Source: an uncultured Pirellulales bacterium
GTDB lineage: Bacteria > Planctomycetota > Phycisphaerae > Sedimentisphaerales > SM23-30
Length of the DNA: 64,000 nucleotides
Assembly: GCA_964482555.1 (NCBI GenBank)
Contig: CAYZXY010000011.1
Coordinates: 984 to 64,983 of the forward strand
Direction of reading: 5' to 3'
Part shown: positions 12,954 to 61,078 of the stretch, piece by piece
Numbering within the stretch: the first letter of the stretch is position 1
Layout of the letters: every line of letters begins with the position of its first letter
Program-made: the position numbers and the translations under genes
The notes under the pieces: generated by a model
The model's database searches: none
What the model saw: the letters and a program-made list of their open reading frames with translations, nothing else
Told to the model about the DNA's origin: nothing

Positions 12954-13934
12954 ATGTTTAATTATATCATTAAACGATTGCTTTTAGCGATACCGACGCT
13001 GCTGGGGATTACGCTGGTGACGTTCACAATCATCAACCTGGCGCCGGGCGATCCGGCGGAATTTCAGTCGCAAAGGATTATGGATTCAAGTATGTCTGAA
13101 CAGGCCTATCAGCAGTACCGTGAATATTACGGATTGGACAGGCCCCTGCAAGAGCAGTACGTCAAGTGGCTGGGACGATTAGTTAAATTTGATTTTGGCG
13201 AATCGATGTCGCCGGACCGACGACCGGTAATGGATAAGGTGCGCGAGAGGTTATGGCCGACGATGTCACTGGCGATTCTGGCGGTAGGGATCAGTCTGGC
13301 GCTGTCGATTCCGATCGGGATATATTCGGCGGCGCATCAAAACGGGCTTTTCGATACGATATCCGGGACGATTCTGTATGCGCTGTATTCGGTGCCGAGT
13401 TATGTGATGGCGGTGCCGCTGATTCTGTTGATCGGGGTGCAGTGGGATTGGCTGCCGTTCCAGGGGATGGTCTCGGATAATTACGATCAGCTCGGTCCGT
13501 ACGGGAAATTCGTCGATCTGGTGCGTCATTATACCCTGATAACGTTTTGTTTCAGTTTTGGCGCCTGGGCTTACTATTCGCGTTTTGTCCGGCAGAATAT
13601 GCTGGAGGTGCTGCGGCAGGATTTTATTCGCACTGCGCGGGCGAAGGGGCTGCCGGAACACGCGGTGATTATGCGGCATGGATTTCGTAATACGCTGATT
13701 CCGGTGATTACGCTGCTGGGGATGCTGCTGCCGACGATTGTGGGCGGTTCAGTGATTCTGGAGGTGATGTTCAATTGGCCGGGGCTGGGGCGGTTATTCT
13801 TCGACAGCATGCTGCAGCGAGATTATCCGACGATTATGTCGATGACGTTTATTACGGCGTGTCTGGTGCTGCTGGGGATTCTGCTATCGGATATCGGGTA
13901 TGCGATTGTCGATCCGAGGATAAAATACCGTTGA
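12954..13934 (+). CDS. Peptide ABC transporter permease, OppB/AppB family (copy 2)
   Basis: 'NLAPGDP', 'GLDRPL..QY', 'FIRTARAKGL', 'FNWPGLG', 'DPRI'. Confidence 0.92.
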   Translation: MFNYIIKRLLLAIPTLLGITLVTFTIINLAPGDPAEFQSQRIMDSSMSEQAYQQYREYYGLDRPLQEQYVKWLGRLVKFDFGESMSPDRRPVMDKVRERLWPTMSLAILAVGISLALSIPIGIYSAAHQNGLFDTISGTILYALYSVPSYVMAVPLILLIGVQWDWLPFQGMVSDNYDQLGPYGKFVDLVRHYTLITFCFSFGAWAYYSRFVRQNMLEVLRQDFIRTARAKGLPEHAVIMRHGFRNTLIPVITLLGMLLPTIVGGSVILEVMFNWPGLGRLFFDSMLQRDYPTIMSMTFITACLVLLGILLSDIGYAIVDPRIKYR

Positions 13935-46076: not shown

Positions 46077-47903
46077 TCATTTATTGACATGATGCTGCTG
46101 GTTGATATCCTGTTCTTTCGATTCCCCGGCATAGTTCAGGGGAATATGGATGTTGAACGTGCTTCCCTCTCCCGGCCAGCTCTGCACCGTGACAAAACCG
46201 CCGTGAGCCTGGGCGATGTGTTTAACGATCGCCAGTCCCAGGCCGGTGCCGCCCAGCTTGCGGCTGCGCGCTTTATCGACCACATAAAACCGCTCGAAAA
46301 TACGCGGCAGCAGTTCTTCGGCAATCCCGCAGCCGTTGTCTTTGACAGATATGACGACATGGTCGTCGATAATCCGGGTGATGATCCGGACGACATCATT
46401 CTCCCGGCTGTATTTGATGGCGTTGTCGATTAAATTTACCACCGCCTGCTCCAGCAGAGCTGTATTTATCGGGGCCCAGGTGTCCTGCTCGCCTTCCTGG
46501 ATCACGGTGATGTTCTTGTTCCGGGCCTGGACCTGCGAAATGTCGGTCGCGGCGTCAATAACAGCCTTGATGGGATCCTGCTTTAGAACAATATGGCCTT
46601 TTTCACTGTCGGCTTCCAGACGAGACAGGCTGAGCAGGTCTTCGATAATGGCATGTAAACGGTCGGTTTGTTTAGCGATTATCGCCAGGAACTTATGAAC
46701 CTGTTCCTTGTTTTCAAACTGACCTTCCAGCAGTGTTTCGACAAATCCTTTAATGGATGTGACAGGGGTTTTCAATTCATGCGAAACATTCGCCACGAAA
46801 TCCCGACGGATGTTTTCCAGTCGTTTCAGGCGTGTCATATCGTTGAGCACGATTACCGCGCCGTGGCGTTCTCCCCGGCTGTTAGTCATGCCCGTACCAT
46901 GAAGCTGAAAAAAACTGGCCTCGCCATGCGGCCAGATGATGCTTGCTTCTATACTGTGGTCGCTTTTGAGTGTCTCGGTGATAAAATCCTGCAGGTCGGG
47001 GTTGCGTATGATTTCCTGAACGCTGTGACCGGTTGTTTTTTCCGTTTCCACGCCCAGCAGCCGGGCCGCCGCCTGATTAATACTGACGATCTTTTCCTGC
47101 ATGTCGATAGCCAGAACACCCTCAGCCATGCTGGAAAGCACTGCTTTCAATTCATTACGCTGCTCGATAATACCCTGAAGATTCTTGTCGAGATTCCGGG
47201 CCATGTCGTTCAGCGATTCCGTCAGATCATCCAGACCTGTCGAGGCCGGCAGCAGAATACGGTGCGTAAGATCCCCTTCGGCGAACCGCCGGGCCACCGA
47301 TTTGATCTGCTCGACCGGCTGCCGTAGCCGGGACAGCATAACCAGGCTGATAACGGCCGCCGTCAGTCCAATAATAAGTCCGTTAATTGTCAGCCGGCGA
47401 AACATCTCCGCCTTCATTTCATCCAGATCCGCGACACTGACTGCCGCTCGCAATATGACATACTCATTCTCTGCCGTATCCACTGGCAAAGCATGCACCA
47501 TGGCTTTTTTGTATAACAGATCGTCGAAGCGGATAATGTAATCTTCCTGCTGTTTCAGAGCCTGGGCGATTTCCGGCATATTCTTCTGGCTGGCCAGAGT
47601 ATCCGCCTGCCCATGTGAATCGGCTATAACCGTACCGTTGGGCAGAATGATCGAGATATGGAGATTGCTGTTCAGCCCCAGTTCCCTGCAGGCCTGCTCC
47701 AGCTCCCCATTCTCACGCCCGGCCATCAGCGGAGTCAGATACTGCGCGATTAATTGCGCCTTCGCGCTGATATCACGTCTTACCAGTCGGTAATAGCTTT
47801 CGCTCAGGTGGTCGATCGCATACCAGCCGTAACCGCCCAGTGCCGCGATCAATAACAGGAGAAAGGCCGGAAAAATATGTCTAAACATCAATTTAAACGT
47901 CAT
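46077..47903 (-). CDS. phoR: Phosphate sensor histidine kinase PhoR
   Basis: Two TMs, HAMP, PAS, 'RRDFVANVSHELKTP', 'FERFYVVDKARSR', 'GGTGLGLAIVKH'; pst context. Confidence 0.92.
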   Translation of the reverse strand: MTFKLMFRHIFPAFLLLLIAALGGYGWYAIDHLSESYYRLVRRDISAKAQLIAQYLTPLMAGRENGELEQACRELGLNSNLHISIILPNGTVIADSHGQADTLASQKNMPEIAQALKQQEDYIIRFDDLLYKKAMVHALPVDTAENEYVILRAAVSVADLDEMKAEMFRRLTINGLIIGLTAAVISLVMLSRLRQPVEQIKSVARRFAEGDLTHRILLPASTGLDDLTESLNDMARNLDKNLQGIIEQRNELKAVLSSMAEGVLAIDMQEKIVSINQAAARLLGVETEKTTGHSVQEIIRNPDLQDFITETLKSDHSIEASIIWPHGEASFFQLHGTGMTNSRGERHGAVIVLNDMTRLKRLENIRRDFVANVSHELKTPVTSIKGFVETLLEGQFENKEQVHKFLAIIAKQTDRLHAIIEDLLSLSRLEADSEKGHIVLKQDPIKAVIDAATDISQVQARNKNITVIQEGEQDTWAPINTALLEQAVVNLIDNAIKYSRENDVVRIITRIIDDHVVISVKDNGCGIAEELLPRIFERFYVVDKARSRKLGGTGLGLAIVKHIAQAHGGFVTVQSWPGEGSTFNIHIPLNYAGESKEQDINQQHHVNK

Positions 47904-47904
47904 T

Positions 47905-48029
47905 GGTACTGCTTCCAATTGAGTCTTCGCTTACGCGGCTCTTTGTGTCCCGTTTTCTCCAATCATAACTGTTTTGGAAAAATACGGTCTGGCGTGGCCC
48001 TGCCGAGAGCTTTTTGCCCGATGGGGTAT
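47905..48029 (-). repeat. Copy D of the ~105-bp repeat (inverted, with ~20-bp insertion)
   Basis: TCCCGTTTTCTCCAATCATAA and CCCTGCCGAGAGCTTT...GGGGTAT match copy C and the reverse complement of copy B. Confidence 0.7.
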
Positions 48030-48033
48030 GAAT

Positions 48034-48735
48034 CTAGTCCTTGAAGCGATATCCCACGCCGCGGACGGTTTCGATGTATTTCCCGCAATGTTTGAGTTTT
48101 TTTCTTAGTGACACGATCTGAACATCCACGGCCCGGTCCGTGACGGCATATTCGCTCCCGCGTATCGCGTCGACAATCTGATATCGCGTGAATACCTGAC
48201 CCGGCCGCTGCGTCAGCGTCTGCAGCGTGCGAAATTCCGTAAAGGTTAAATCGATCGGCTCGCCGTCAATCAGCACTTCATGCCGCACCGGATCGATCAC
48301 CATATCATGGATGCGAATCTTATCCCCGTCGTTAAGTTGCTTATCATTGCGTCGGAGCAGTGAACGCACCCGTGCCAGCAGCACCTTGGGGCTGAACGGC
48401 TTGGTGACATAATCGTCGCCGCCGACTTCCAGGCCGGTTACGATATCGGACTCTTCCGTCTTGGCCGTAAGCATAATAATCGGTACATTCTCGGTCTTGG
48501 CGCCTCGTTTCAATTGTTTGCAGACGTCCAGGCCGTTGATTCCCGGCAGCATCAGATCCAGAATAATCAGATCCGGCAGAGGTTCCTCCGATTTCTTCAG
48601 CGCTTCTTCTCCGGTATCCGCGCAAACCACCTGATACCCTTCCTTGATCAGGTTGTACCGGAGCAGTTCCAGAATATCTTCTTCATCATCAACCACTAAA
48701 ATCGTTTCTTTTGTTGGTGGATTTGTTGTAACCAT
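48034..48735 (-). CDS. phoB: OmpR/PhoB-family response regulator PhoB
   Basis: 'LVVDDE', 'DLMLPG', 'KPF', winged helix 'RAVDVQIVSLRKK', 'IETVRGVGY'. Confidence 0.93.
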   Translation of the reverse strand: MVTTNPPTKETILVVDDEEDILELLRYNLIKEGYQVVCADTGEEALKKSEEPLPDLIILDLMLPGINGLDVCKQLKRGAKTENVPIIMLTAKTEESDIVTGLEVGGDDYVTKPFSPKVLLARVRSLLRRNDKQLNDGDKIRIHDMVIDPVRHEVLIDGEPIDLTFTEFRTLQTLTQRPGQVFTRYQIVDAIRGSEYAVTDRAVDVQIVSLRKKLKHCGKYIETVRGVGYRFKD

Positions 48736-48879
48736 AGGACCTCGTTGATTCTCCTTCGTTAGTCAATCTTGTGGATTGGAGATAAGGATTTTCAATTGTG
48801 CAGCAATTACAGAAGCACAAAATTGACCATAACTATATCATACTGCGGGGCTTACTGTCAAGAGAAGATGGACTGTAAC

Positions 48880-49027: not shown

Positions 49028-49936
49028 TCATCGCTTATGAAGAAAGCCGACCGTCGATTCCATGATGCGATGGCGGAGCCGGCTGTTCTCACTTTCACGG
49101 GTCTGTTCCTGCAGGTCCACCATGTTTGCCTGACAGAAGTTGCATCCGAGCGTGTGCAAATGAAACCGGGCGTAATCGGCCCAGGGGTCGTCCAGCGTCT
49201 GCAATAGAAATGCCCCGATCGTGCTGCGCTTCAGGCAGCTCAACCGTTGTCTTTCCCAGATTTCGCTGATGAAGGTCTCCATTCCGGGGCTTTCCAGGTC
49301 GGGCCGATATGCCTGATGCGATATTTTTCCCTGGATCTGTTTGAAAATGCGATGCTTGATGACCGCGATGTTGCGATCGCTGATATTGATGAGTTGCGCT
49401 ATCTTCTTATTTGGCAACTGGCAATATAAAATGCACTCGATGATCTTCAAATCACGGAAATTCTGTGAGTTCTTCATGCCGTTGACCATCTCCCGCAGCA
49501 CATCCGTAAAGGCCGTTTCGCTTTGCCGGCGGCCTTCGTCGCGGCGAGCATAGCCGCTGGCGGTCAGATCCGCCGCCGCGATTGTCTGAAAAGGGTCCGA
49601 GCCGTGGGAATCCTCCTGGGGGTATTTGATCACATCCTGCAAAAGGCAGACGCGGGCCGATTGCCGGCTGCGATAGGTATTGATAATCTTCCGGCGGAGT
49701 ATGGTGAACAGGTAGGTCTCAAGACTGGCCTCGCCGCGAAAGTCGTTCAATCCCTTGAGAAACGCCAGAAAAGTGTCCTGAACAATATCATCGGCGTCGG
49801 CCTTCTGGGGCAGCTTGCTTATGGCGAACATTACCAGTCGTCCCTGATAACGCTCGACGACCTGGGTCCAGGCTTGCGAATCGCCCTGGCGTATCTGATC
49901 GAGTAAATATTGTTCGGCTTGGGTGATTTCGCTCAT
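49028..49936 (-). CDS. ECF sigma factor with C-terminal zinc-finger-like extension
   Basis: Sigma region 2 'GDSQAW...YQGRL...DADDIVQDTFL...LETYLFTILRRKII', region-4-like HTH, C-terminal 'CLKR...FHLHTLGCNFC'. Confidence 0.85.
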   Translation of the reverse strand: MSEITQAEQYLLDQIRQGDSQAWTQVVERYQGRLVMFAISKLPQKADADDIVQDTFLAFLKGLNDFRGEASLETYLFTILRRKIINTYRSRQSARVCLLQDVIKYPQEDSHGSDPFQTIAAADLTASGYARRDEGRRQSETAFTDVLREMVNGMKNSQNFRDLKIIECILYCQLPNKKIAQLINISDRNIAVIKHRIFKQIQGKISHQAYRPDLESPGMETFISEIWERQRLSCLKRSTIGAFLLQTLDDPWADYARFHLHTLGCNFCQANMVDLQEQTRESENSRLRHRIMESTVGFLHKR

Positions 49937-49982
49937 TTTACGTCTTTGCGTTTACGGGTTAATGGGTTCATGGATTTTCAGG

Positions 49983-51950
49983 TTAAGCTAAAAACAATAC
50001 AATGGCAAGGCCGGCCGCGACGATGATGATCGCGCCAATGCGGAGCGTCAGGGAGTAATAGCCGCGGGTGGCAAAATTCAGGAATACGTATAACCCGGTT
50101 ATCAGGGCCATCATGCCCAACACGGAAACGGCGCGGTCGAGCCATAGATTTCTTTTCATCTTTGTTTGCTGTCGTGGCCCTGGCCCTTCAGTGATTCCGG
50201 CCACGATCGTACGGTCCAGGCTGTTGAGATTCTCCGGCGAGGCATTGATCAGTAACGCTTCACGGACAATCGGGCCGGCGCTGCCGTAAAAGCTTTGGAC
50301 AAACGTGTCTGCGATGAATATATTATCATTGTTTTGCAGCAAAGCAGGCGTGATCGAATCATGTACTTCGGGCGATCGTTGATAGACAAGTTGATTTAGT
50401 TTGTCGGAAGCATCATGCAGGGCCTGCCAGCGGGCTTCATCTTCAGTCACGCAGGAATCGTCGGAGCGGCCGATAATCCATTGTTCGCCGGGGCGGTTGT
50501 TGGTAAATGCCGGCCAATCGTCCGCCCACTGTTTCTCCATGAATTTCAGGGAATGGGACAGCGCTTTTTTGCCATCTGCGGTATATACGGTCATTTCAAC
50601 GGTTCCATTCTTCTGGTGCAGTGGTTTATATTTATATCGGCTCATGCTGCGTGTTTGATTCTGGCGGATGTCGAGATTCAAACGGATGTGAACCGGTTCG
50701 GCAGGCATTTTCGCCTCGACGCCGGCTTCCGGCAGCGTCTCAGTTAATTCCATCGCCTCGTAGGAGTTTGCCGGCGTATCGGTTTCGTCCTGCGTCTGAT
50801 AGAATCTGACGGGGGTGTCGGATGTCATATCCGCTTTGGTATTATGAGCGGCTAGAATTGGCCCTGTTTCCATCGTTTGGGAGTTTTCCGGCGGAACGGA
50901 TGGTTTCAGTGTATCTTTCTTATCATTCATTGGATGTTGACGTATGGTAATGCTCACTTTCATGGCGCCGGCCAGTTTGGCTTCATCGACGATTTGCACC
51001 AGCGTTTCGGTTTTCGCGTTGGCGCCGGTCAGGATTATCACCGGTGATTCTTTAACTTGGAGTCTGCTTTTTACCAGCGGCCCCACACCGCTAACGCCGA
51101 TTTCCTTGCCGTCATGCAGCACCAGACCATCATCCGTCAGGATAATCATTATGCTGTTTCTGTCTTGCGGTTCAAACGAAACGGTTTCCTTGATGGGAGG
51201 AAACGGCTTGGGGATAGTGGTTTCCACATGAATCTCAACGGGATGCGGCAGATGCTTCTCGCGGATTTCTTCGGCGAAAGCATACAAAATATCGCTGGTG
51301 AAATAATGCGGATCCACATCGCCGTAAAGGTATATTTCCCGCGGCCAGGTGTGACCTGCCTCCAGTGGCATCCGCTGGTACAGCTTGTTGGCCAGCGCCC
51401 GCGAAGCGGCGATCGGCGACGGATAGTAATCGGCGAAAAACTGTTCTTCTACCGCTTCGGACCAGACCGGCGACGCCGTTGCGTCCAACGTTCCATAATG
51501 AGAGGTGTCGGGATTCTGTGCTATTGGCCGGGCCTCCTTCTGGGCCTGTCTCAGATGGGTTTCTTGAACAGCCTCAGTCCTGCTGAAGAAGATGAAAGGC
51601 AGCAATACTAATATCGGCACCACCAAAACCAGTAAGGCCGTAATCAGTATCGCCGGCTTGACTTTGCGAACAGCGAACACTATCAATCCCAGTCCGACGG
51701 CTCCCAGCAGCATTATTATAAAGCCACGTTTAAATGGTATCCCTCTCTGCAGGGCAAATGGAGCCGCACAAATAAATCTGGCCAGAAATAATCCGCCAAT
51801 GATAATCGCCGGTGCCATAAAAACCCATTTCAGCCGGCGCGGATCCCGTCTGACAAATTTCAGCAACAAGAAGGCCCCGGCGATAATAAGGACTGGGATT
51901 ATTATTATTATGATTAATCCAAAATTAGGTATTGGCATGGTTGGTGTCAT
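49983..51950 (-). CDS. Multi-pass membrane protein with an internal ExbD-like periplasmic domain
   Basis: Four N-terminal and two C-terminal TMs; 'PVIILTGANAKTETLVQIVDEAKLAGAMKVSI' resembles the ExbD/TolR C-terminal domain. Confidence 0.7.
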   Translation of the reverse strand: MTPTMPIPNFGLIIIIIIPVLIIAGAFLLLKFVRRDPRRLKWVFMAPAIIIGGLFLARFICAAPFALQRGIPFKRGFIIMLLGAVGLGLIVFAVRKVKPAILITALLVLVVPILVLLPFIFFSRTEAVQETHLRQAQKEARPIAQNPDTSHYGTLDATASPVWSEAVEEQFFADYYPSPIAASRALANKLYQRMPLEAGHTWPREIYLYGDVDPHYFTSDILYAFAEEIREKHLPHPVEIHVETTIPKPFPPIKETVSFEPQDRNSIMIILTDDGLVLHDGKEIGVSGVGPLVKSRLQVKESPVIILTGANAKTETLVQIVDEAKLAGAMKVSITIRQHPMNDKKDTLKPSVPPENSQTMETGPILAAHNTKADMTSDTPVRFYQTQDETDTPANSYEAMELTETLPEAGVEAKMPAEPVHIRLNLDIRQNQTRSMSRYKYKPLHQKNGTVEMTVYTADGKKALSHSLKFMEKQWADDWPAFTNNRPGEQWIIGRSDDSCVTEDEARWQALHDASDKLNQLVYQRSPEVHDSITPALLQNNDNIFIADTFVQSFYGSAGPIVREALLINASPENLNSLDRTIVAGITEGPGPRQQTKMKRNLWLDRAVSVLGMMALITGLYVFLNFATRGYYSLTLRIGAIIIVAAGLAIVLFLA

Positions 51951-52074
51951 TTCTAGTTGTTCCTTCGTTTATTCTAACAGGCCCGAAGGGCGGATTTTGT
52001 ACAGCCCCGGGCAAAGCCATGAGTTAATGAATCGAAATCAGCGTATAAGCTTTGCAAGGGCGTTTTGCCTTTCT

Positions 52075-55000
52075 TTATTGTACATTCCTGGCCTCTATCA
52101 CATTTCTGCGTTTCTCCGGCCAGCACAACATCACCAGCGAGACGATGAACCAGAATGCCGCAAACAAAACATATTGCCGGTCGGCCTGATTCATGATCGT
52201 GATGAAAAAGTTCATCACGTCGTCGAAATGATTGATTTCCATGTAATTTGGCAAGATGCCGTTCATCATGTTAAACATCAGATAAAAGCCGAACAGGGCC
52301 GCCAGTGATCGAAGTATATGACCCCCATTGAAACGGCGGGCGAAGATCATAAAGACAGCCGCCAGGACGAGTAATGCCGTGGCGATAAAACCGCCCAGCG
52401 ATTCCGCCATGGCCGGCCAGGCTTCGCCGCCAAACAGGCGCTGCATGTCCCGACAGAGTCCGGGGCAAAACCCGGACTGGGCGATAAGGTGCGGTACATG
52501 CAAGTGCGATACCAGGGCGGCGAGCAGGGCGAAAAACAGACAGGCGATGCCGAGAATGCCGGAGATACTCGTTAATGAGTGAGCGGGCATTTTCCATCTG
52601 GAATCCTGCGTAATACCCGAGGTATTAAACCTTGAGCCGGCCGGTGTCGGCTCCGACATGGTCGCCGGAGATGCTTGATGCCGGGAGTGTCGTCTTTGGG
52701 ATGACCGGGGATGACCGGCAGGTCGGGCATGAGTCGTCGCGGCCGGTTCAGGGTTGTCGGTTGTTTCAATCTTTTGACGAGGGCCCACAATAACATCTTC
52801 GCCAATCAGTTCCGACGTTTCAAACCAGATTTTCAGAGGGTGGCCGTTGATGTCGCGGAAACTGCCGGAAAGAATGCGAATGAAATCGACCAACTGACCG
52901 ATTATAAACAAACCACCTGTTAAAAGCCAGATAACGCCGGTCGTTATTTTACCGGCATAAAATCGGTGCAGCCCGCCAATCCCGATAAACAGCCCCGCAC
53001 AACACAGCAACGCCCAGCATCGCTTATAAGGCGAAACGCATTTCGGATCGGGTTTAGTAATTTTCTTCGCAGGGATAAACAGCATAATAAAATATAACAC
53101 GGTTGAAAACAAAATGATAGAGGTAAGAATTACAACTGCTGCCGGGGAGTTTATACTGCCGATCGTCATGGCACTGACGCAAAAAATTGCAGCCTGGACA
53201 CAAATCATCATGGCCAGCGGTTTGATCAGATAGCTGAACCAACCATTAAACGTATCCTGGTATAATCTTTTCAGGCTGAATATGGTTAACATGAATGACA
53301 GAGGCCCGAATAAACACAAGAATATTTCCGCTGTTTCGTCTTTAGATTTCATGTTTAAAACCGGCAATATAATCGTTCCCGCCAGCGCTGCAATAAACAC
53401 GATTCCCCAAACGGGTTTCATCCACCGCAGGATAGATTGTTTTTCGGGAGCGTGTGAACCAGTTTGATTCAAAGCAGAGGCGGCTCCGGCTCCTGCCGTG
53501 TTTTCTCGTTTATAATTGTCATACTGCCGGAACGTTTGATCTGGTTCCGATGGCTGCGTTTGCCGGGGTGGCGTCGGCGGTCGTGTACGGCCGGACTGGT
53601 GCAGCGCTTCCTGGAATTGCCGGCGGAGGTCGCGGGGAATATAGGGGCTGGCGAGCTGAATGACCATGACAACACCGGCAATAATACCAATAGTCAATGG
53701 CACCGGGCTGCCAAAGACTTCCGCCGCCGCGAATCCGAGCGCCCCCCAGCCGACGGCGGCTCCGAGCGAGAGCCGTTTTTCCCGCAGCGGATTCATGAGG
53801 GCAGACCAGTCGATCAATATAAAAATTATGATACCCGAAAGGAACATCCCCAAGACTGGCTGCTCTTTTAAAGGCGATGCCACTAAAAGCGGCAAGGAAA
53901 TGATCGTTCCCAGCAGGCCGATACTGCCGGAGATCAGACGCCGTAGCCAGGAGGATTCGGCTTCAATCCGGGCGGTCAGTTTCCGTTCGCTGATACTGAT
54001 GCCCAGAGAAGCGCCCATTAGCATTAAAACGCTAACTATGCCGTAACCCCAAACATCATCATCATTTATCACGGGCCCTGCCATGAACAGGCCGATGCCC
54101 AGCGAAATGATGAGTATGGATATAATGAGGAGTCCCCATTTCTGGCCTTTGGTAACGGGGTCCATTTTCTGAGCGAGCTTAAAACGCAATTCCGGTGAAG
54201 CGGCAGGGGATGTTACGGCATCGACCGTCATATCCTCTTTCGGGTTTTGGCCCCGGCCGTGGAATTTGCCATGAATATGATCGGTAATATCTTCCATTTT
54301 TTTACCGATCTTTTCGCCATTTTCTCCCATTTCCCTGCCGAATTTATCACCCCATTGGCTCTTTTTCTCGCCGAAATCCGCCGTCTTCTGCCCGAAATCC
54401 TCAACGTCACGGGCGTTATGGTCCTTTTCCCGAACATAATTGCCGTTGGGTATCTGTGTGCTTTTGCGATTTTGCGACGGGGAATCAGACGCTGGTTTGC
54501 CGGAATCGCCTATTTTTTCTGTTTTGCCGGCGGCATAGGCCGCGATGATCGAAAGACTGTCCGGCGAAAACTGCGATACGCTATTGCGGACATGTTCGGC
54601 CCCGAAAACATCCTCCACCATTTCCTGAATGATGTGGTATCGCTGGGATGGATCTTTGGCGAGGGCCTTTTCGATAACCCGTTTGAAAGGCTGTTCGACA
54701 TCGGTAATATCCGGTTTGACGGTCATATGTTTCATGAGGATTTCACCGGGGCTGGAGCCGAAAAAGGGTACCTGTCCGGTCAGCATTTCATAAATCAGCA
54801 CGCCCATGGCATATATATCGATGCTTTTATCATAGCAGCCGGCACCGATTTCCGGAGCCATATAATGCACCGTGCCGACGGTGATGGTCTGGCCGCTGTG
54901 AATGCCCTGACGGATAGCCTTACTCAGGCCGTAATCGCCTATTTTAACATAGCCGTTTTCGTAGAAAATATTACCGGGCTTGATATCGCGATGGACGATG

Positions 55001-55458
55001 CCGCAATCATGGAGATAGGAAAGGCCTTTAGCGATTTCGCGGAGGAAAAACGCCGTTTTTTGCGGTCCCAGGCCGCTGGGAGCGTTATCGATCAGGTCAC
55101 GCAGTGAAGGACCGGCTACATATTCCATGATGACAAAGGGCCGCCCGTCCTGGTTGTACTTGACATCGAAGATCGTGACCAGATGGGGGTTCTTCAGATT
55201 CATGCACTGGGTGATGCCGCGCAGCTCGATCTGCTCGTAGTTCTGGATCGCTTTGAGCGCAACCTGCCTGCCGCCGTCGCTGACGGCGTAATAGACTTCA
55301 CCAAAACCACCGCGACCGGCAGCCCGATGAATCGTGTACCCTTCGAGGGGTTTGTCTCCATATTTATACCGAAAATTATGCATCCTGGATACCCTGTCCA
55401 TTATATCATATTCGTCCTGCTTTGCCAATTGCCCGGTACTCGATTTCGCCTTCAGCAT
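52075..55458 (-). CDS. Hanks-type Ser/Thr protein kinase with many TM segments and a TM2 (NINE) domain
   Basis: 'GRGGFGEVY', 'ALK', 'HRDIKPGN', 'DYG', 'GTVHYMAPE'; TM2 '[23 protein letters not shown]...VD'. AGGAGGT RBS before ATG 55458. Confidence 0.92.
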
Positions 55459-55610
55459 AATGTGTACCTCCTGCCCACTCAACCTTGTTTACCCGCAGGC
55501 GTTTACGCTTATTTTTCCTGTTTTGTGACGACAGCAATAATCAGGGTGTTGGCGTTACTTTGATTCTTCACTTCATTCTTTATTGACCATTCATTCAATA
55601 TTGTACCACA

Positions 55611-57227
55611 TTAAGTCCTTACCAGAACCATAGAAAGAGATCCCATTTTTATGGGTGTCTCCAGAGGAAGTCTATCTGTTTTTTCAGCCGGCTTTCCGTC
55701 GATGATGACCGGTTCTTCCGAGCGGCAGGTCAGTCGGCCGTCTTTATCGACGAGCGTTATGGTTTCGTTGGCCCGTTCATTGCGAATATGAGCCGACTTA
55801 CCGGGACCTATAATTATTTCCCGGTCCAGCAGCACGGCATTTCGTATATCCATTTGGGGATAGCGGGCGCCGCTGAAGGAGACGATCGCGGTGGCGCTGG
55901 CGGCATGGGGACGTTTGAACTCCAGATAACAGCGCGGCGAGAGTTCTATTTTTTCTTGTGAACCGAGCAGTTTTTTATTTGGACTGTTTAAAACGGCGCC
56001 GCCGACGCGAACGGGACCGCGGGAACGCAGGAAGTAATCTTCGTCCATACGTTCAATGATAACCTGGGGAATATCCGGACCGGCGACCAGGCCGATATCT
56101 GCCGGCTTATTGCCGCTGATGGGGCCGATTGTGATTTTCGGGTTCCGTAAAATAAGATAGCTGCCGATACCGTCGAGCTGCAGGATGTATTTTTCCGGCA
56201 GCGGTTCGGGCATCAATGCGGCATTGTAAGTGTTAATGGATTGCTTCATGGCTGGCTCATCGAAGGGTGTTATAAAAGATGGGCTGGGTTTAGTTGGCAG
56301 GTTTTCTCCAGAATCATCAGGTTGAGTTGAAGGAGGCAAAACCCAGCCCAGTGGACCCGTTTGAATCGTTTCCAATGCTTCGGCTGTTTTGTGCAATTGT
56401 TCGATGGCGTTGTTGAGCCAGGGGTAATCCGGCAGGATATTCTGCACCTGCCGCAGCGTGTTCAGTCCCGGGCGGAATTTTCCCTGGCGAATATGGCGGG
56501 CGGCGCGTTGCAGTTGTTCATATATATGCTGGAGTTCCTGCCATTGCAGGTTATTGTTCATGTGGGGGGCGAGCGTTTCCAGATACCATTTTGTCAGGTC
56601 GAGCCGGCCCTGGGCGAGCGTGTCTTGCGTGATTTGCAAGGCGTTTTGGGTGATTTTGCCCCAGAGTTCGGCCAGTTCCCGGCGCTGTTCCCTGACTTTT
56701 CCGCAGTCTTGCAGCGTTTGAAAGGCGGCGGACAGATCGCTGCGTTCAAGGGCTTCGCGAGCCTTTTTCATGGCGATTTCAAGATCCTGACGTCGGGCAT
56801 TGATTTTTTCCTTCAATAATTCGGTGTGTCCATGGTCGTCGCCGGCGCCGTCAAGAATCTGCTCAGCGGAACTGAGCCAGCCCTGTTCGATATGACGCAG
56901 GACATGTTTGAATTTGTCGCCGTTATGCTGCTGGTTTTGCTGCCGGTTATTGACGGCATCGGTGACGGCCTGTTTAAGTGATGCAATCTGGGGAATGTTG
57001 CCGGCGAGGATTTCGGCTTTCCGGCAGTCGTTGAGGGCCTGGTTCAGGTGATGATTTTGGAGGTGGTTGCGGCCGCGATCGGCCAGCGCCATGGCCAGTT
57101 TGCCGATCAGTTCCTGACCGCGGCGCTGTTGACGAATCTCACGGTCGTCGGCCAGTTCGAAGGCTTCGTCCAGACATCCGCCGTTAAAGGCAGTCTCAGC
57201 TTGTTTTAATCGCAAATTCAACACCAT
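55611..57227 (-). CDS. TPR/helical-repeat protein with C-terminal FHA-like beta domains
   Basis: Helical N-terminal ~290 aa, Pro-rich linker, beta-rich C-terminus 'LDGIGSYLIL..ITIG', 'IIIGPGKSAHIR'. The FHA assignment is by resemblance only. Confidence 0.55.
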   Translation of the reverse strand: MVLNLRLKQAETAFNGGCLDEAFELADDREIRQQRRGQELIGKLAMALADRGRNHLQNHHLNQALNDCRKAEILAGNIPQIASLKQAVTDAVNNRQQNQQHNGDKFKHVLRHIEQGWLSSAEQILDGAGDDHGHTELLKEKINARRQDLEIAMKKAREALERSDLSAAFQTLQDCGKVREQRRELAELWGKITQNALQITQDTLAQGRLDLTKWYLETLAPHMNNNLQWQELQHIYEQLQRAARHIRQGKFRPGLNTLRQVQNILPDYPWLNNAIEQLHKTAEALETIQTGPLGWVLPPSTQPDDSGENLPTKPSPSFITPFDEPAMKQSINTYNAALMPEPLPEKYILQLDGIGSYLILRNPKITIGPISGNKPADIGLVAGPDIPQVIIERMDEDYFLRSRGPVRVGGAVLNSPNKKLLGSQEKIELSPRCYLEFKRPHAASATAIVSFSGARYPQMDIRNAVLLDREIIIGPGKSAHIRNERANETITLVDKDGRLTCRSEEPVIIDGKPAEKTDRLPLETPIKMGSLSMVLVRT

Positions 57228-57290
57228 AAGACTCCTGTATAATACGCCAGAAATACCCGGTCATTTTCTGCCAGCGTGAAACAGCAGCAA

Positions 57291-57318
57291 AGCGCCCGAT
57301 GATTGGTAACGGGCGCTC
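57291..57318 (-). terminator. Hairpin after the PspA-like gene (terminator/attenuator)
   Basis: AGCGCCCG...CGGGCGCT 8-bp stem, followed by TT(G) on the minus strand. Confidence 0.5.
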
Positions 57319-57333
57319 TGATGTCAGAATGTT

Positions 57334-58185
57334 TTACATACCACGGGCGGCCATATGATACTGATCTTCAGTGTCAGTCGTTTCTTCTTTTTCGGGCCTG
57401 GTTGCCGTCGGAGAGAAATACTCATCGATTTCTTCCAGCATGTCTTGTTCTTGAACGGTATCGACGGGGATGTTCTCAATGAATTTGCTTTCATGAGACA
57501 GAACCCGTTCGGCGACTTCCAGACGTTTCTTGATGCTCGAGATCAGATTTTCGGTTTGCTGGAGCTTGCTGTTATCCAGCTTCAGCGTTTTAGAATCCGC
57601 GGCAGCCGTTTTCAGCAGGCGGTGCTGACTGGCGAGCGTCTCTATCTTGTTTTCCAGCAGCAGTTTCTGGCTGCGGGTTTCGTCCAGTTGCCCCAGGGCG
57701 CTTTTAAGTGCGTTTTCCCGCGTGGCCAGCAATTTCTTTTTTGTCTGTAATACGAGTTCGGCTTCCTTGAAGGTCTCGAATTGACGGCCCAGTTCGTCCT
57801 TCACCTGGGCACGGGTGTATTCGTGACGACCGAAGGTGTAGTTTGCCTTCTGTAAGTCAAGCGATTCCCGTAGTTTAGATACTTCTGCACGTTGGTCCTT
57901 CAACCGCTTCTCCGACATTTCGATGTCCTTCCTCAGGTTCGCCACCTCGACTTCTTCCTGGGCGATGAGCCGGATTTGGGCATGCATCTCCGGGATGACC
58001 ATTTCCAGCAGGTCCTGGGCCCGTTTCAGCTCAAACTCAATCGGAACGTTGTTTTTTGCGGCTTTTTGTACCGATTTGACCGAGCTGTTTATATAACTGA
58101 ACAACTGGTCGCCAAACAGCAGGCCACCCACGACCAATATCGCGATGCCAAGAAACAACCCTTTTTTACATACTTGTTTAACCAT
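57334..58185 (-). CDS. Membrane-anchored PspA/IM30-like long coiled-coil protein
   Basis: N-terminal hydrophobic segment, then about 200 aa of continuous heptads with PspA-like size and layout; AAGGAG RBS. Confidence 0.6.
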   Translation of the reverse strand: MVKQVCKKGLFLGIAILVVGGLLFGDQLFSYINSSVKSVQKAAKNNVPIEFELKRAQDLLEMVIPEMHAQIRLIAQEEVEVANLRKDIEMSEKRLKDQRAEVSKLRESLDLQKANYTFGRHEYTRAQVKDELGRQFETFKEAELVLQTKKKLLATRENALKSALGQLDETRSQKLLLENKIETLASQHRLLKTAAADSKTLKLDNSKLQQTENLISSIKKRLEVAERVLSHESKFIENIPVDTVQEQDMLEEIDEYFSPTATRPEKEETTDTEDQYHMAARGM

Positions 58186-58521
58186 GATATAACTCCTTTT
58201 GTAATTACAGGACCATAATTATTCATTTTTTTTTCTAACCACAAAGATGGAGTCATGCAACAGGGAGGTGTATTACAAAAAAATCAATAAATATACCCAA
58301 TGGGTATGAAAAAACCCGATAACGATACAAAATTCCAATGACGAATTCTGTTATAATTCTGTGGGAAGGTGAGATTCCGTCAGGAAAAGCTATGCCAAAG
58401 TGGTGCATAAGTTCATGTAATAAATATAGTTACGGATGGTTGCCTTGGGCATCGCTGCATGGAGGCTGTGCTATTGTTTTCATATATTGCATTTTATGAC
58501 CATTCTCTTTAAAATTGTTTT

Positions 58522-59490
58522 ATGAAATCCAAACACTATTTGAAAAATCCATGCTTCGCCCCAAACGGCCGGCAATGCCGGGGGTCGCAATCTACCCTGG
58601 CCACTCTTGTACTCGCGGGTATTTTGGTCGGTGCGTTGATTTCGGCTCAGATTCTGGTCATGCGGCGAAATCTGCCCCCACAGGTGATTGACAATGCGGC
58701 CAGACTGCTGGAGAAGATTTCACAAGAAGGATTGGCGGCATATATCCGTAAGCCGGAGATTAATTTCTATCTGATTGAACGAGATGACGATCTGGTGGGA
58801 TACAGCATCGAAGCCATTCGTTCCGATGAAAACAATACGCAGTTTAGAGGACGTGATTTCAGTTATTTTGATAACACGTCTATCCAGAATCAGTACATCA
58901 TCAGTAACGATCTGTCACAATACACTATTAATGAAGAACGTGTTAATACCCGTGAGGGCATTTCCGAAACTTTTCGTATGGTGAGAAACGATAAGGTGCT
59001 CCGTATTACCGGTCAAGTCTCTTTTTCCGGGACCACGCAACCGCTGGGCTTTAGACAGACGGAAACCATACCGGAGAATCTTATTCCCCCGCCACTGCTG
59101 GGATTGTTTGTCGGGATGCTGCGGGATGAAACTTTCGAGAGGGGGGCGGCGTTCCTTTATCCTTATCCCGAAGCCACACGCCAGGGTGTGAAATTAAAAC
59201 TGCCCGCCTGCTGGGTTCGCAAAGAGGGCGCTATTCCCGGCCCGGTGAAAAACCGCTATCCGCAAGGCTATGCGATGCAAACCCGGTGGTACGGTATTGC
59301 GTTTAAGCAGAATATGCTTTTCGATTATGATAAACAGTTGCTCTGGAGTGAAAACATCCAGGATGACAGCAGGGAAATCATTCGCCGGACGACGCTGACG
59401 GAATTGTTATCTGAATTCCCGGAAGCCCAGAATAATCTTAAAGATCAGTTTGGCGATTATGAAATCGTTAATCAACAGGAAATCCTGTAA
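58522..59490 (+). CDS. Membrane-anchored hypothetical protein
   Basis: 322-aa ORF with one TM followed by a beta-rich domain. Confidence 0.7.
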   Translation: MKSKHYLKNPCFAPNGRQCRGSQSTLATLVLAGILVGALISAQILVMRRNLPPQVIDNAARLLEKISQEGLAAYIRKPEINFYLIERDDDLVGYSIEAIRSDENNTQFRGRDFSYFDNTSIQNQYIISNDLSQYTINEERVNTREGISETFRMVRNDKVLRITGQVSFSGTTQPLGFRQTETIPENLIPPPLLGLFVGMLRDETFERGAAFLYPYPEATRQGVKLKLPACWVRKEGAIPGPVKNRYPQGYAMQTRWYGIAFKQNMLFDYDKQLLWSENIQDDSREIIRRTTLTELLSEFPEAQNNLKDQFGDYEIVNQQEIL

Positions 59491-59530: not shown

Positions 59531-61078
59531 ATGAAACATTCATTGACATCCCGGCTCCGATTCCAGCAGATGCTGCTGTTGACGCTGGCAATTCTGGGCG
59601 GTATACGTTTTTTATGTGCTCAAAACGCCACAGTTCCGCCGGCGGAAAAACCAGCGACGATGCCGATGCCTCAATACGTAGATATTCTTAACGGTTTTTC
59701 GCTGCGGTGTCCCTGGCCTGCCGTTCCCTTGAGCAACATTCCTTCCACGTTGCAAAATCAGGCCATGGGCAAACTCAACGGTCATTATGCTCCTCATCAG
59801 GCCTGGCAGGATTTTCAGAACTGGGACGCGGTCAAGTTTCCGGCGGGCAAGGAACTGGTCCGCTTCTTCCCGGCTCACGACAAAGACCTCGGTTGCCTGA
59901 TGGTGTATCTGGTTGTGACCCGCGAAAGCCTCGGCATCGAACAGCTCATGCAGGCCCGCCTCAATTATTGGAATAAATATCCACGGCGAATCGACATGCG
60001 GCAATCCACGATCGGAATCAGCAACGGCCGGGCAGCCGCACGCTTGCAACTTTCCTGGAAAAAAGACGAAAACGCCTTGCCCAGCCAGCACATTGCCGAG
60101 GCCCTGGTCCAGAACGAAAAAGACCGCTATTTTCTGATTATGCTGGCCCATAACAATGGCGACCCGTGCCAGGTTGATGCGATGTTCGACCTGACCCTTC
60201 AGACGTTTCAATGCCTTAGCAAAACCGAAGAGGATAAACGCTGGGAACAGGCCAAAAAACAAGGCGAAGCCTTTCTCGATCAGTTGAATGCTGACAAGAT
60301 CGCTTCCGCGTTGAATTCCATAACCGGCTTTCGCATCGTTCACCAGGGTAAGGAAGTCGGCTTCCTGATGCTGACGGAACAATTCAGTCGCAGCGGGGAA
60401 GATCCTTCCTTGCAGATCACCATGCAGGGGTATCTGGAGCAGGCGTCGCAGGTCTTCAAACTGGCGGATATGCAGGGCTGGCGTTCGTCCATCAAATATT
60501 CTGATAGCGATATGCAGTTTCCCGGCAGTCCCGTGTGGGTGCAATGTACCCTGAACATTGCCGTCACTCTCAAAACCGGCAGTTTTGATTACGTCCTGCG
60601 GCCCACAAACTCACCCGGTATGGGTTATCGCGAACAAGGCGCTTTCAGCAACGGCACACTGACTGTCAAACGCTACCTGCCCATTGAGACGAAAGAGCCG
60701 TCTGTTGACACCCTCAAAATTGTCAACAGTATTTATCTGCCCTGGTCGCTGCGTCCCTTGCTGCATCGCCTGACGGACCGAAAAGTCGGCGGTGAGTATG
60801 TCTTCATGACTTATCACGACGGCAATCTCTGCTACCAGACACTGCATTACAACGCGGATATTCCCCTCACTGTTGATGGTGCGACCTTCAATACAATCTA
60901 TGCTGTTGCCCAACCCGGCGTTCAGGGGCCAATCATCGAATACTGGCTCGACAGCAAGGGTCGTATCGTTCAACAGCGTTGTGGTGAGATAATGCTCATC
61001 AAGGATGACATCAATAATTTAAAAGCGAAATGGCCCGAACCATTCGAATCAATGACCGCCGCCGGGCAGCCGGGATAG
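59531..61078 (+). CDS. Exported hypothetical protein
   Basis: 515-aa ORF with a signal peptide; the C-terminal half resembles the upstream gene. Confidence 0.72.
   Translation: MKHSLTSRLRFQQMLLLTLAILGGIRFLCAQNATVPPAEKPATMPMPQYVDILNGFSLRCPWPAVPLSNIPSTLQNQAMGKLNGHYAPHQAWQDFQNWDAVKFPAGKELVRFFPAHDKDLGCLMVYLVVTRESLGIEQLMQARLNYWNKYPRRIDMRQSTIGISNGRAAARLQLSWKKDENALPSQHIAEALVQNEKDRYFLIMLAHNNGDPCQVDAMFDLTLQTFQCLSKTEEDKRWEQAKKQGEAFLDQLNADKIASALNSITGFRIVHQGKEVGFLMLTEQFSRSGEDPSLQITMQGYLEQASQVFKLADMQGWRSSIKYSDSDMQFPGSPVWVQCTLNIAVTLKTGSFDYVLRPTNSPGMGYREQGAFSNGTLTVKRYLPIETKEPSVDTLKIVNSIYLPWSLRPLLHRLTDRKVGGEYVFMTYHDGNLCYQTLHYNADIPLTVDGATFNTIYAVAQPGVQGPIIEYWLDSKGRIVQQRCGEIMLIKDDINNLKAKWPEPFESMTAAGQPG

Follow-up and report, generated by a model that had tools for sequence, protein, structure and literature searches.

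Introduction

PspA, IM30 and Vipp1 are the bacterial proteins of ESCRT-III, a superfamily that remodels membranes. In the Psp system, PspA works with PspB and PspC, the latter its classical membrane partner, and with the sigma54 activator PspF, and an N-terminal amphipathic helix provides PspA with peripheral membrane binding. In the Lia system of the Firmicutes (LiaIH with LiaFSR), a PspA-family effector is induced by an adjacent membrane-sensing pathway. Here we describe a five-gene operon at positions 49028–58185 of a 64,000-nucleotide stretch of DNA (the window) from contig CAYZXY010000011.1 of an uncultured planctomycete labelled as a Pirellulales bacterium (assembly GCA_964482555.1). The first gene, g1, encodes a predicted membrane-anchored helical hairpin, and g2 to g5 encode a protein with TPR-like repeats and FHA-fold domains, a Hanks-type Ser/Thr kinase, a membrane protein and an extracytoplasmic function (ECF) sigma factor. 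The best reading of the operon, which we hold with moderate confidence, is a Psp-like, kinase- and ECF-linked module led by a transmembrane (TM)-anchored protein that is probably related to PspA.

The operon resembles the Psp system in the helix order and approximate helix lengths of g1, in weak Foldseek matches of g1 to Vipp1, and in the similarity to PspA (81–86% in profile–profile comparison) seen through distant members of the g1 family. The PspA-like gene stands first in the operon, one subclade of g1 relatives lies beside PspC, and in one genome the g1-like gene lies beside a sigma54 activator. The operon differs from Psp in that g1 has no match to the PspA model PF04012, carries a TM helix in place of the amphipathic helix and has a beta-hairpin at the tip of its helical hairpin. 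The presumed sensor is a Hanks kinase rather than PspBC alone, and the output regulator is an ECF sigma factor rather than PspF. PspA and its relatives self-assemble into rings, rods or carpets on membranes. As in Lia, a putative effector of the PspA-family type is encoded alongside what would be a dedicated membrane-sensing pathway, but Lia uses a histidine kinase, a response regulator and a separate anchor, LiaI, whereas here the anchor lies within g1 and the pathway consists of a Hanks kinase and an ECF factor.

Several ECF groups are associated with kinases, including ECF43, ECF59–62, ECF217, ECF267 and ECF283, and the studied case is the ECF43 factor of Vibrio parahaemolyticus. The ECF reclassification paper proposes that kinase-linked groups are regulated by direct phosphorylation. 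Its supplement describes ECF61 as a planctomycetal group in which position -2 is taken by a kinase having five or more TM helices and the promoter motif is not conserved. The pairing of a kinase with an ECF factor is itself a known predicted type. An initial annotation of the window had proposed an alternative Psp-like response wired through the kinase and the sigma factor. Its observations are confirmed and its interpretation is partly supported: a conserved module and a resemblance to PspA speak for the proposal.

A conserved five-gene cassette

The elements of the operon are as follows.
57334–58185, minus strand: g1, 283 aa; a single predicted TM helix, a long helical hairpin and two more helices; a divergent candidate of the PspA/IM30-like (ESCRT-III) type
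55611–57227, minus strand: g2, 538 aa, cytoplasmic; TPR-like repeats (residues 1–295), a disordered linker (301–339) and FHA-fold beta domains (346–445 and 447–537)
52075–55482, minus strand: g3, 1135 aa by the longest open reading frame (ORF); a Hanks-type Ser/Thr kinase domain (49–289), about 13 hydrophobic segments and a TM2 domain (827–868)
49983–51950, minus strand: g4, a 655-aa membrane protein with four N-terminal and two C-terminal hydrophobic segments
49028–49936, minus strand: g5, 302 aa; an ECF sigma factor comprising sigma2, sigma4 and a conserved C-terminal extension (about 75 aa)
57288–57320, minus strand: a GC-rich stem-loop (stem of 11 bp, loop of 11 nt) in the g1–g2 spacer, with UUUGCUGCUGUUU next after it
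58252–58276, minus strand: a promoter-like dyad, GTAAT-N16-TGAC, which has a T-run immediately upstream and stands about 70–90 nt ahead of the g1 ATG

The ORF list places five co-oriented genes on the minus strand at exactly the limits first annotated. The longest ORFs leave intergenic gaps of 106, 128, 124 and 46 nt from g1 to g5. A hydropathy scan predicts one membrane segment in g1 (residues 10–28), about 13 in g3 and four plus two in g4; g2 and g5 are predicted to lack any. The g1 segment is followed by a coiled coil, in agreement with the earlier description of a membrane-anchored coiled-coil leader. Pfam and NCBIfam gave names to three of the five proteins (g3, g5 and, at the borderline, g4), and neither database assigned a family to g1 or g2.

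Gene order was examined in one genome per species. The scan gave 139 g1 relatives, 80 loci were kept, and the five proteins were placed on them by tblastn. The initial annotation had named gene order in advance as a point on which its proposal could fail, and the order held: all five genes follow one another on the same strand in 44 of the 46 loci that extend 9.8 kb or more downstream of g1, a regularity beyond chance. In loci long enough to judge, g2 comes next after g1 in 62 of 62 and g3 after that in 60 of 60. The two exceptions to the full order are L005, where g5 was not found, and L025, where the kinase is cut and g4 and g5 were not found. Two short loci, L038 and L046, have a sigma gene upstream on the opposite strand. 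The start of g4 overlaps the stop of g3 in many orthologous loci (L002, L004 and L012, for example). On one contig from a metagenome-assembled genome (MAG), the g2 and g3 homologues occupy a single open frame of 1356 aa (L055:11154–15224), in which the g2 match stops at residue 453 of 538; this frame is either a natural fusion linking the two functionally or an assembly error.

By title, the 80 loci come mostly from Phycisphaerae, Sedimentisphaerales and Anaerohalosphaeraceae, with some MAGs labelled Pirellulales and one cultured record, Fontivita pretiosa (L080), which carries the full set of five genes. When the phylum was sampled evenly, the g1 family turned up in 34 of 151 genomes, with a single match in all 34 except G083, which has two. 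A word-indexed search returned 601 g1 relatives at E<=1e-3, and an exhaustive profile search returned 1450 representative clusters. Identity across alignment A1 is 48–74%, with 50 invariant columns. The cassette is a conserved Planctomycetota module, almost always single-copy where it is present.

The same features bear on a different view, that the cassette is no stress system but a housekeeping machine for membrane organization or division/morphogenesis in which g1, of PspA descent or not, is a structural coiled-coil scaffold whose production is timed by the kinase, g2 and the sigma factor. The nearly constant single copy, the wide spread and a degree of conservation that is unusually high for a coiled coil all favor it, whereas absence of the cassette from 117 of the 151 genomes is odd for core machinery. 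Weighing these points with those on PspA co-occurrence, gene neighborhoods and the promoter given below, we consider a housekeeping machine rather unlikely.

Similarity of g1 to PspA

The AlphaFold2 (AF2) model of g1 consists of the TM helix, a helix at residues 49–110, a beta-hairpin tip at 115–124, a helix at 125–197 and two further helices at 205–236 and 246–257. The predicted local distance difference test (pLDDT) score is 77 overall and 87–96 over the hairpin. The model has the PspA-type layout, a long alpha1/alpha2-3 hairpin followed by alpha4 and alpha5. Lack of the ESCRT-III helical hairpin had been named as a ground for giving up the PspA reading, and the hairpin is present in the model, so the reading is not refuted. 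Foldseek, the search proposed at the outset, returned Vipp1 at all of ranks 1–5; the matches are weak (E 3.6e-3 to 1.9e-2, identity 17–20%), and Smc and axonemal coiled coils follow close behind.

Profile–profile comparison (hhalign) was used with a target of 20 planctomycete PspA proteins taken from loci of the phylum, where the usual bar for homology is 90–95%. A profile of eleven distant g1 members, drawn from other families of the phylum, matched PspA at 85.7% (E 5.5e-6) over 241 collinear columns, and at 81.2% (E 1.2e-5) in a second comparison. The same eleven matched the window's clade at 100% (E 1.2e-40). In the controls for the eleven, reversed PspA gave 4.4%, LemA 3.3% and OmpH 33.8%, the last limited to the N-terminal hydrophobic part. 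Across all the g1 profile comparisons the controls ranged over 0.2–4.8% for reversed profiles, 0.4–3.3% for LemA and 2.5–5% for OmpH after TM trimming. The narrow g1 alignment A1 matched PspA at 2.9%, with reversed controls scoring 16.1 and 16.7. A broader alignment of 62 representatives of the window's clade (A3) reached 36% with a score of 34.5 (reversed, 16.7 and 17.5); with the TM segment trimmed its score was 31.1, compared to 21.1 for OmpH, 16.6 for LemA and 13–16 for reversed profiles. In the profile alignment, the conserved g1 stretch right after the TM segment pairs with the PspA N terminus. Two other kinds of control were discarded, circular shifts because local alignments survive the shift, and reversal of both profiles because collinearity is kept.

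A number of results count against descent from PspA. VIA-align put generic helical hairpins first (Z 11–12, with helical-protein noise at about 13) and did not single out Vipp1, and its ranking cannot separate the families. Because the layout is common to unrelated hairpins, the predicted structure alone leaves the descent of g1 undecided. PF04012 gave no match to g1 (E<=0.01) and none among the families of 30 relatives (E<=1), and it never picked a g1 gene in the window's genome or in 121 genomes of the phylum. A PDB sequence-profile search with g1 returned no PspA or Vipp1, just coiled-coil and ACP rows at chance level, and NCBIfam gave g1 no link to PspA. The window's own clade reaches only 2.9–36% against PspA, and the higher value rests on 11 sequences whose subgroups gave 71%, 19% and 3.9%. 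The beta-hairpin of g1 is an insertion of about 12–15 residues at the PspA hairpin tip, and TM segment 10–28 stands where PspA has its N-terminal amphipathic helix. The flanks of this segment carry a mean net charge of +2.15 (N) and +1.1 (C) in the g1 family, and the N flank is the more positive one in 63 of 91 members. Under the positive-inside rule, such a bias would place the coiled coil outside the cytoplasm, where it would be separated from g2 and the kinase domain as well as from the site where PspA acts. Finally, at least six genomes (G003, G043, G070, G094, G095 and G118) carry a canonical PspA as well as g1, so g1 is no simple substitute for PspA. This co-occurrence is also a point in favor of the housekeeping machine.

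The charge bias suits another explanation, that g1 is an exported, periplasm-facing coiled coil that is unrelated to PspA and resembles it by convergence, and that it works with g4 and the outer g3 loops as a co-sensor in, or a negative regulator of, an otherwise ordinary kinase-linked pathway of the ECF61 type. Its structural matches to generic hairpins and its lack of a Pfam PspA match fit this idea, as do public records that name some relatives 'signal peptide-containing protein' and the presence of periplasmic EnvC (rank 15) and PcsB (rank 37) among the Foldseek matches. Convergence is harder to reconcile with the similarity to PspA, which runs collinearly through as many as 241 columns and scores above the controls with reversed profiles, OmpH and LemA; OmpH, which is periplasmic, scores only 21–23 after TM trimming. 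There is also no evident signal-peptidase site, the residues after the hydrophobic stretch being LFG-D/K, and the PspC-domain partner described below fits PspA-type biology. On this evidence an unrelated exported protein is unlikely.

We conclude that g1 is probably a remote homologue of PspA, with a little more confidence than we give to the module as a whole. The earlier description of g1 as PspA-like holds for the helix layout and, by way of the distant members, for the profile similarity; it does not extend to a PF04012 match or to the window's own clade, which stays at or below 36%. By these predictions the g1 family is a large family of TM-anchored helical-hairpin proteins that has no Pfam model and whose distant members resemble PspA/IM30. 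The ESM Atlas returned for g1 its own unnamed family only, with no named family over residues 40–262. The longer g1-family proteins P0258, P0207, P0172, P0138 and P0206 showed no informative extra domain, in analyses that included no search aimed at fused or split forms.

The window's genome is 97% complete and has no PF04012 match above the cut-off. The sole match is sub-threshold (25.9 bits, cut-off 33.9) and lies at contig C28:14412–14702 (L081), where it covers profile positions 39–132 inside a 487-aa ORF.

Gene neighborhoods of distant g1 relatives

The neighborhoods of the distant relatives give a second line of evidence. In G100 (L172, 6532–13343, minus strand) the gene order is a 148-aa ORF with a lipoprotein-like N terminus, the g1-like gene, a Pkinase–PspC fusion, an FHA–Sigma54_activat–HTH_8 protein and an HtrA-type protease. 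The PspC domain fused to this kinase scores 69.8 bits. A search with the G100 protein added three more genera of the same family, and the Pkinase–PspC fusion is the next gene after the g1-like gene in all four genomes (four genera of one family, PspC 50–70 bits). The FHA–sigma54 activator is present in one of the two loci of this subclade that are long enough to show it. A sigma54-type element with two mismatches stands in the expected place near the G100 variant (13337–13352); the locus holds 17 such matches compared to about 10 expected by chance, which makes it weak.

Among the independent lines of evidence that the g1 family has a Psp-like role, the adjacency of g1-like genes to a PspC kinase is the strongest. 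The window's own kinase carries TM2 and no PspC. The combination of PspC kinase, FHA–sigma54 activator and HtrA in this subclade points to envelope stress, which argues against the housekeeping machine. A published survey (PMC11237479) argues, in its accessible part, that the PspC domain acts as a membrane-proximal sensor; planctomycetes, FHA and Ser/Thr kinases are unmentioned in that part.

Other neighborhoods are more varied, and a same-strand kinase close downstream was found in only 4 of the 10 distant g1 loci fetched, which counts against the Psp-like module. In L168, L169 and L170 (G083, G108 and G129, one family) the g1-like gene is followed by a protein of about 230 aa and two Ser/Thr kinases. 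The 230-aa protein has a weak TPR_2 match in L168 only, and an asparaginase II gene follows the kinases in two of these three loci. In L173 (G101) the g1-like gene is followed by a 217-aa ORF and then by a 749-aa protein whose residues 325–460 contain ECF sigma regions.

The g5 sigma factor

The initial annotation placed an ECF sigma factor in the operon, and the domain searches bear this out. The g5 protein matches TIGR02937 at 81 bits (cut-off 42.9), Sigma70_r2 at 58.1 bits and Sigma70_ECF at 33.5 bits. An alignment of 49 orthologs was built. The C-terminal extension contains an invariant C-x24-H-x5-C-x2-C pattern (C32, H57, C63 and C66) in 28 of 28 sequences, and in the linker between sigma2 and sigma4 a Cys and the stretch T-A-S-W-Y are conserved. 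The pattern resembles the zinc-binding ZAS anti-sigma motif (zf-HC2), which is H-x3-C-x2-C. The extension was considered as a ZAS element and rejected: the spacing differs, and H-x3-C-x2-C can be read in the window only by way of a second His that is not conserved. The extension gave no zf-HC2 match at E<=10 and no PDB match. None of the five operon proteins matched an anti-sigma family in Pfam or NCBIfam.

The context of g5 fits ECF61. The organism is planctomycetal, the kinase lies two genes upstream and has about 13 hydrophobic segments, and no anti-sigma match was found. The likeness, an ECF factor without an obvious anti-sigma gene and with a polytopic kinase two genes upstream, is to the description of the group. 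The accessible description of ECF61 differs in lacking a conserved promoter, a C-terminal extension, a coiled-coil gene and a TPR/FHA-fold gene, and all four are conserved here.

The promoter-like dyad and the stem-loop

A dyad was found upstream of g1, consisting of TGAAATAA or CGCAATAA, a 16-nt spacer and CGAC (GAAAT-N16-CGAC). Exact words were common to up to 39 of 79 g1-upstream sequences, compared to 8 at most in one shuffled set. A loose regular expression found the dyad in 54 of the 79 upstream regions, in nearly every case at about 97 nt from the ATG, and the spacer measured 16 nt in 54 of 55 sites. In both of the complete genomes searched (2/2), the exact dyad occurs once, ahead of g1. 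A genome of the same family as the window's has GTAAT-N16-CGAC at this position, and one of the same class has GAAAC-N16-CGAC. This dyad form is typical of ECF promoters, and we infer that g5 reads it. The restriction of the strict motif to this operon in these two genomes suggests a dedicated circuit and not a broad stress regulon, which is a further point for the housekeeping machine.

The window itself fits this promoter assignment less well. Its copy, GTAAT-N16-TGAC, departs from the motif at two positions, and a position weight matrix scan of its genome gave a best score of 24.5 (training median 28.1) and did not single out the window's own copy. As no site came near the training scores, no regulon can be defined in the window's genome.

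Other elements lie close to the dyad. In most loci (L002, L003, L016, L030 and others) a stem-forming stretch begins about 8 nt after CGAC and consists of AATGTGGCCG, a few bases and CGGCCG; it is probably at the 5' end of the transcript, judging from its position. The word TGTGGCC occurs in 37 of the 79 upstream regions, and the window has only a degenerate TTTGTGG. Family f6 (L105, L106, L108, L109 and L113) has another pair in the same place, TTTCAA(G/T)AAT and CGAAT(A/G)AC separated by about 12–23 nt. The different pair in f6 suggests that the promoter changes together with the sigma factor from one clade to the next.

The hairpin that the initial annotation saw behind g1 exists. Its stem arms are at 57320–57310 and 57298–57288, its folding energy is -21.3 kcal/mol, and none of 12 shuffles folded as low; the whole g1–g2 spacer has a folding z of -2.5. 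The UUUGCUGCUGUUU tail is a moderate U-tract only. Conservation of the hairpin is partial, a point against the module reading. Of 77 orthologous g1–g2 spacers, 29 contain a local hairpin that outscores every one of 12 shuffles, and 0 of 77 have a strong stem with six or more T among the 12 nt that follow it.

The g3 kinase and the g4 membrane protein

The g3 protein matches Pkinase at 166.5 bits (cut-off 31.7) and TM2 (PF05154) at 42.8 bits (cut-off 27.9), and the catalytic motifs VALK, HRD, DYG and APE can all be read in its sequence. By domain and motifs, g3 is a Hanks-type Ser/Thr kinase, and with its roughly 13 hydrophobic segments it is the polytopic kinase that was first annotated. The Pkinase plus TM2 architecture recurs in 14 of 15 orthologous kinases scanned. 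We know of no established role for the TM2 domain, from bacteria to animals. The orthologous kinases begin about 33 residues inside the longest g3 ORF, and their lengths make the ATG at 55383 the probable true start. A near-consensus sigma70-type promoter (55400–55428, minus strand; TTGGCA-17-TATAAT with TG, 11/12) is contained in the 5' end of this ORF and could provide basal expression of g3–g5 independent of the g1 promoter.

The kinase also gives matches to defense systems, which raises the idea that the cassette is a mobile system centered on a Ser/Thr kinase, for anti-phage defense or another accessory function. Its kinase domain matches PADLOC mad6 (221 bits) and PD-T4-6, and NCBIfam MADS6 at 118 bits, where the cut-off is 460. 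The PADLOC and MADS6 matches cover the generic kinase domain only (residues 31–300), and the other four proteins have no PADLOC match. A cassette that is nearly always single-copy, is syntenic across orders and has its own sigma factor and promoter is atypical of defense islands, and a defense role is very improbable.

The conserved parts of g4 (about 76–250 and 400–655) belong to no family. A borderline ExbD match covers residues 251–337 (26.1 bits, cut-off 25.4). An ExbD/TolR (PF02472) identity was rejected for g4: the matching stretch of about 150 residues (251–400) is an insertion in the window's copy only, and residues 251–375 have an occupancy of 0–0.02 across 30 aligned orthologs.

The g2 protein

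The AF2 model of g2 has a pLDDT of 87.3, with helices 2–295 at 85–97 and the beta domains at about 90. The helical repeats are TPR-like by a PDB profile match (2e-9) and by Foldseek (P58IPK TPR, 2.6e-4); Pfam TPR_2 appears at E 4.2 only. Foldseek matched the beta domains to the tandem FHA domains of EssC (E 1.2e-3) and to EmbR (E 5.5e-3). VIA matched them to PscD (Z 7.9), YscD (Z 7.6) and the CT664 FHA domain (Z 7.2) at 2.0–2.2 Å over 87–88 residues, Z values that are middling. By AF2, Foldseek and VIA, both domains have the eleven-stranded beta-sandwich fold of FHA.

The initial annotation took g2 as TPR-FHA-like with FHA domains reading phosphothreonine. The repeats and the fold stand. The phosphothreonine premise does not, and three results speak against it. 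No FHA (PF00498) or Yop-YscD_cpl match was found in g2 at E<=10, and hhalign of g2 against a canonical FHA protein (62 bits to PF00498) gave 0.3%. Canonical FHA loops carry the motifs G-R, S-x-x-H and N-G; the conserved I-G-P stretches of the two g2 domains, read by eye with no structural superposition, do not have them. With the FHA signature undetectable in g2, reading of phosphothreonine is not supported, and a scaffold is the more likely role.

Proteins with related architectures are known. EssC (type VII secretion) also has two FHA-fold domains in tandem, YscD/PscD (type III secretion) share the fold of the g2 beta domains, and EmbR of Mycobacterium tuberculosis also combines helical repeats with an FHA fold, the repeats in g2 lying ahead of it. 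EmbR is the partner of a Ser/Thr kinase and a substrate of PknH. To our knowledge, the FHA domains of EssC and YscD lack the phosphothreonine-binding residues. Unlike these proteins, g2 has no sequence similarity to FHA models and no DNA-binding or ATPase part. The g1 protein carries a conserved acidic VDEYF stretch that was considered as a partner for the g2 TPR repeats; complex prediction with g2 and g1 residues 29–283 gave a score of 0.00 and a mark of 0.32, which is no verdict.

Flanking genes

A two-component pair lies directly downstream of g5 on the minus strand (46077–48735), an OmpR-type response regulator (48034–48735) and a HAMP-PAS histidine kinase (46077–47918). A strong sigma70-like site is at 48861–48832. 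Upstream of g1, two divergent plus-strand ORFs encode proteins of 322 aa (58522–59490) and 515 aa (59531–61078) with no Pfam or NCBIfam match, and none of the 80 related loci has a counterpart of either beside the cassette. The two-component genes and the ORFs upstream of g1 are outside the conserved set, and the two-component genes are unlinked to the cassette in most related loci.

Discussion

A model can be drawn for the Psp-like module. The membrane part of g3, probably with g4, would sense the state of the cytoplasmic membrane, and the g3 kinase domain would activate g5, either by phosphorylating it directly, the mode of regulation proposed for ECF groups linked to kinases, or by relief of an inhibitory C-terminal extension. 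The g2 protein would act as a scaffold between the kinase and its targets. Active g5 would drive the GAAAT-N16-CGAC promoter ahead of g1 and raise expression of the whole operon, which is probably self-activating. The stem-loop behind g1 would let g1 accumulate above the signaling proteins. Held by its TM helix in place of an amphipathic helix, g1 would assemble on the bilayer to stabilize or reshape it.

A bolder version makes g1 a new TM-anchored branch of PspA/ESCRT-III that forms, with the kinase, a membrane-remodeling machine rather than a mere stress buffer, perhaps on the periplasmic face, at which the charge bias hints. It would possibly serve FtsZ-independent division or membrane invaginations, both typical of the phylum, with phosphorylation standing in for ESCRT-III's ATPases. 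We consider this version improbable.

The literature searched held no description of the cassette wiring, a PspA-like protein with a membrane kinase and its own sigma factor, although supplementary tables may hold more. Neither the g1 family and its fixed TM2- or PspC-kinase partnership nor the TPR/FHA-fold partner, the Cys/His sigma extension and the promoter were found described there, and the accessible parts of PMC11237479 and PMC11032199 do not describe the cassette.

If g1 is a true relative of PspA, the superfamily gains a large branch that is unseen by family models, comprises 1450 representative clusters and has its own membrane anchor. The module would then be a third wiring beside PspBC/PspF and LiaFSR, with a eukaryote-like kinase sensor carrying TM2 or PspC and an ECF sigma factor or an FHA–sigma54 activator as its output. 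The TM2 domain would be given a functional context, that of membrane sensing. ECF61, a purely predicted group, would gain a conserved promoter, a Cys/His extension and defined partner genes, and control of a sigma factor by phosphorylation would therefore become directly testable in planctomycetes.

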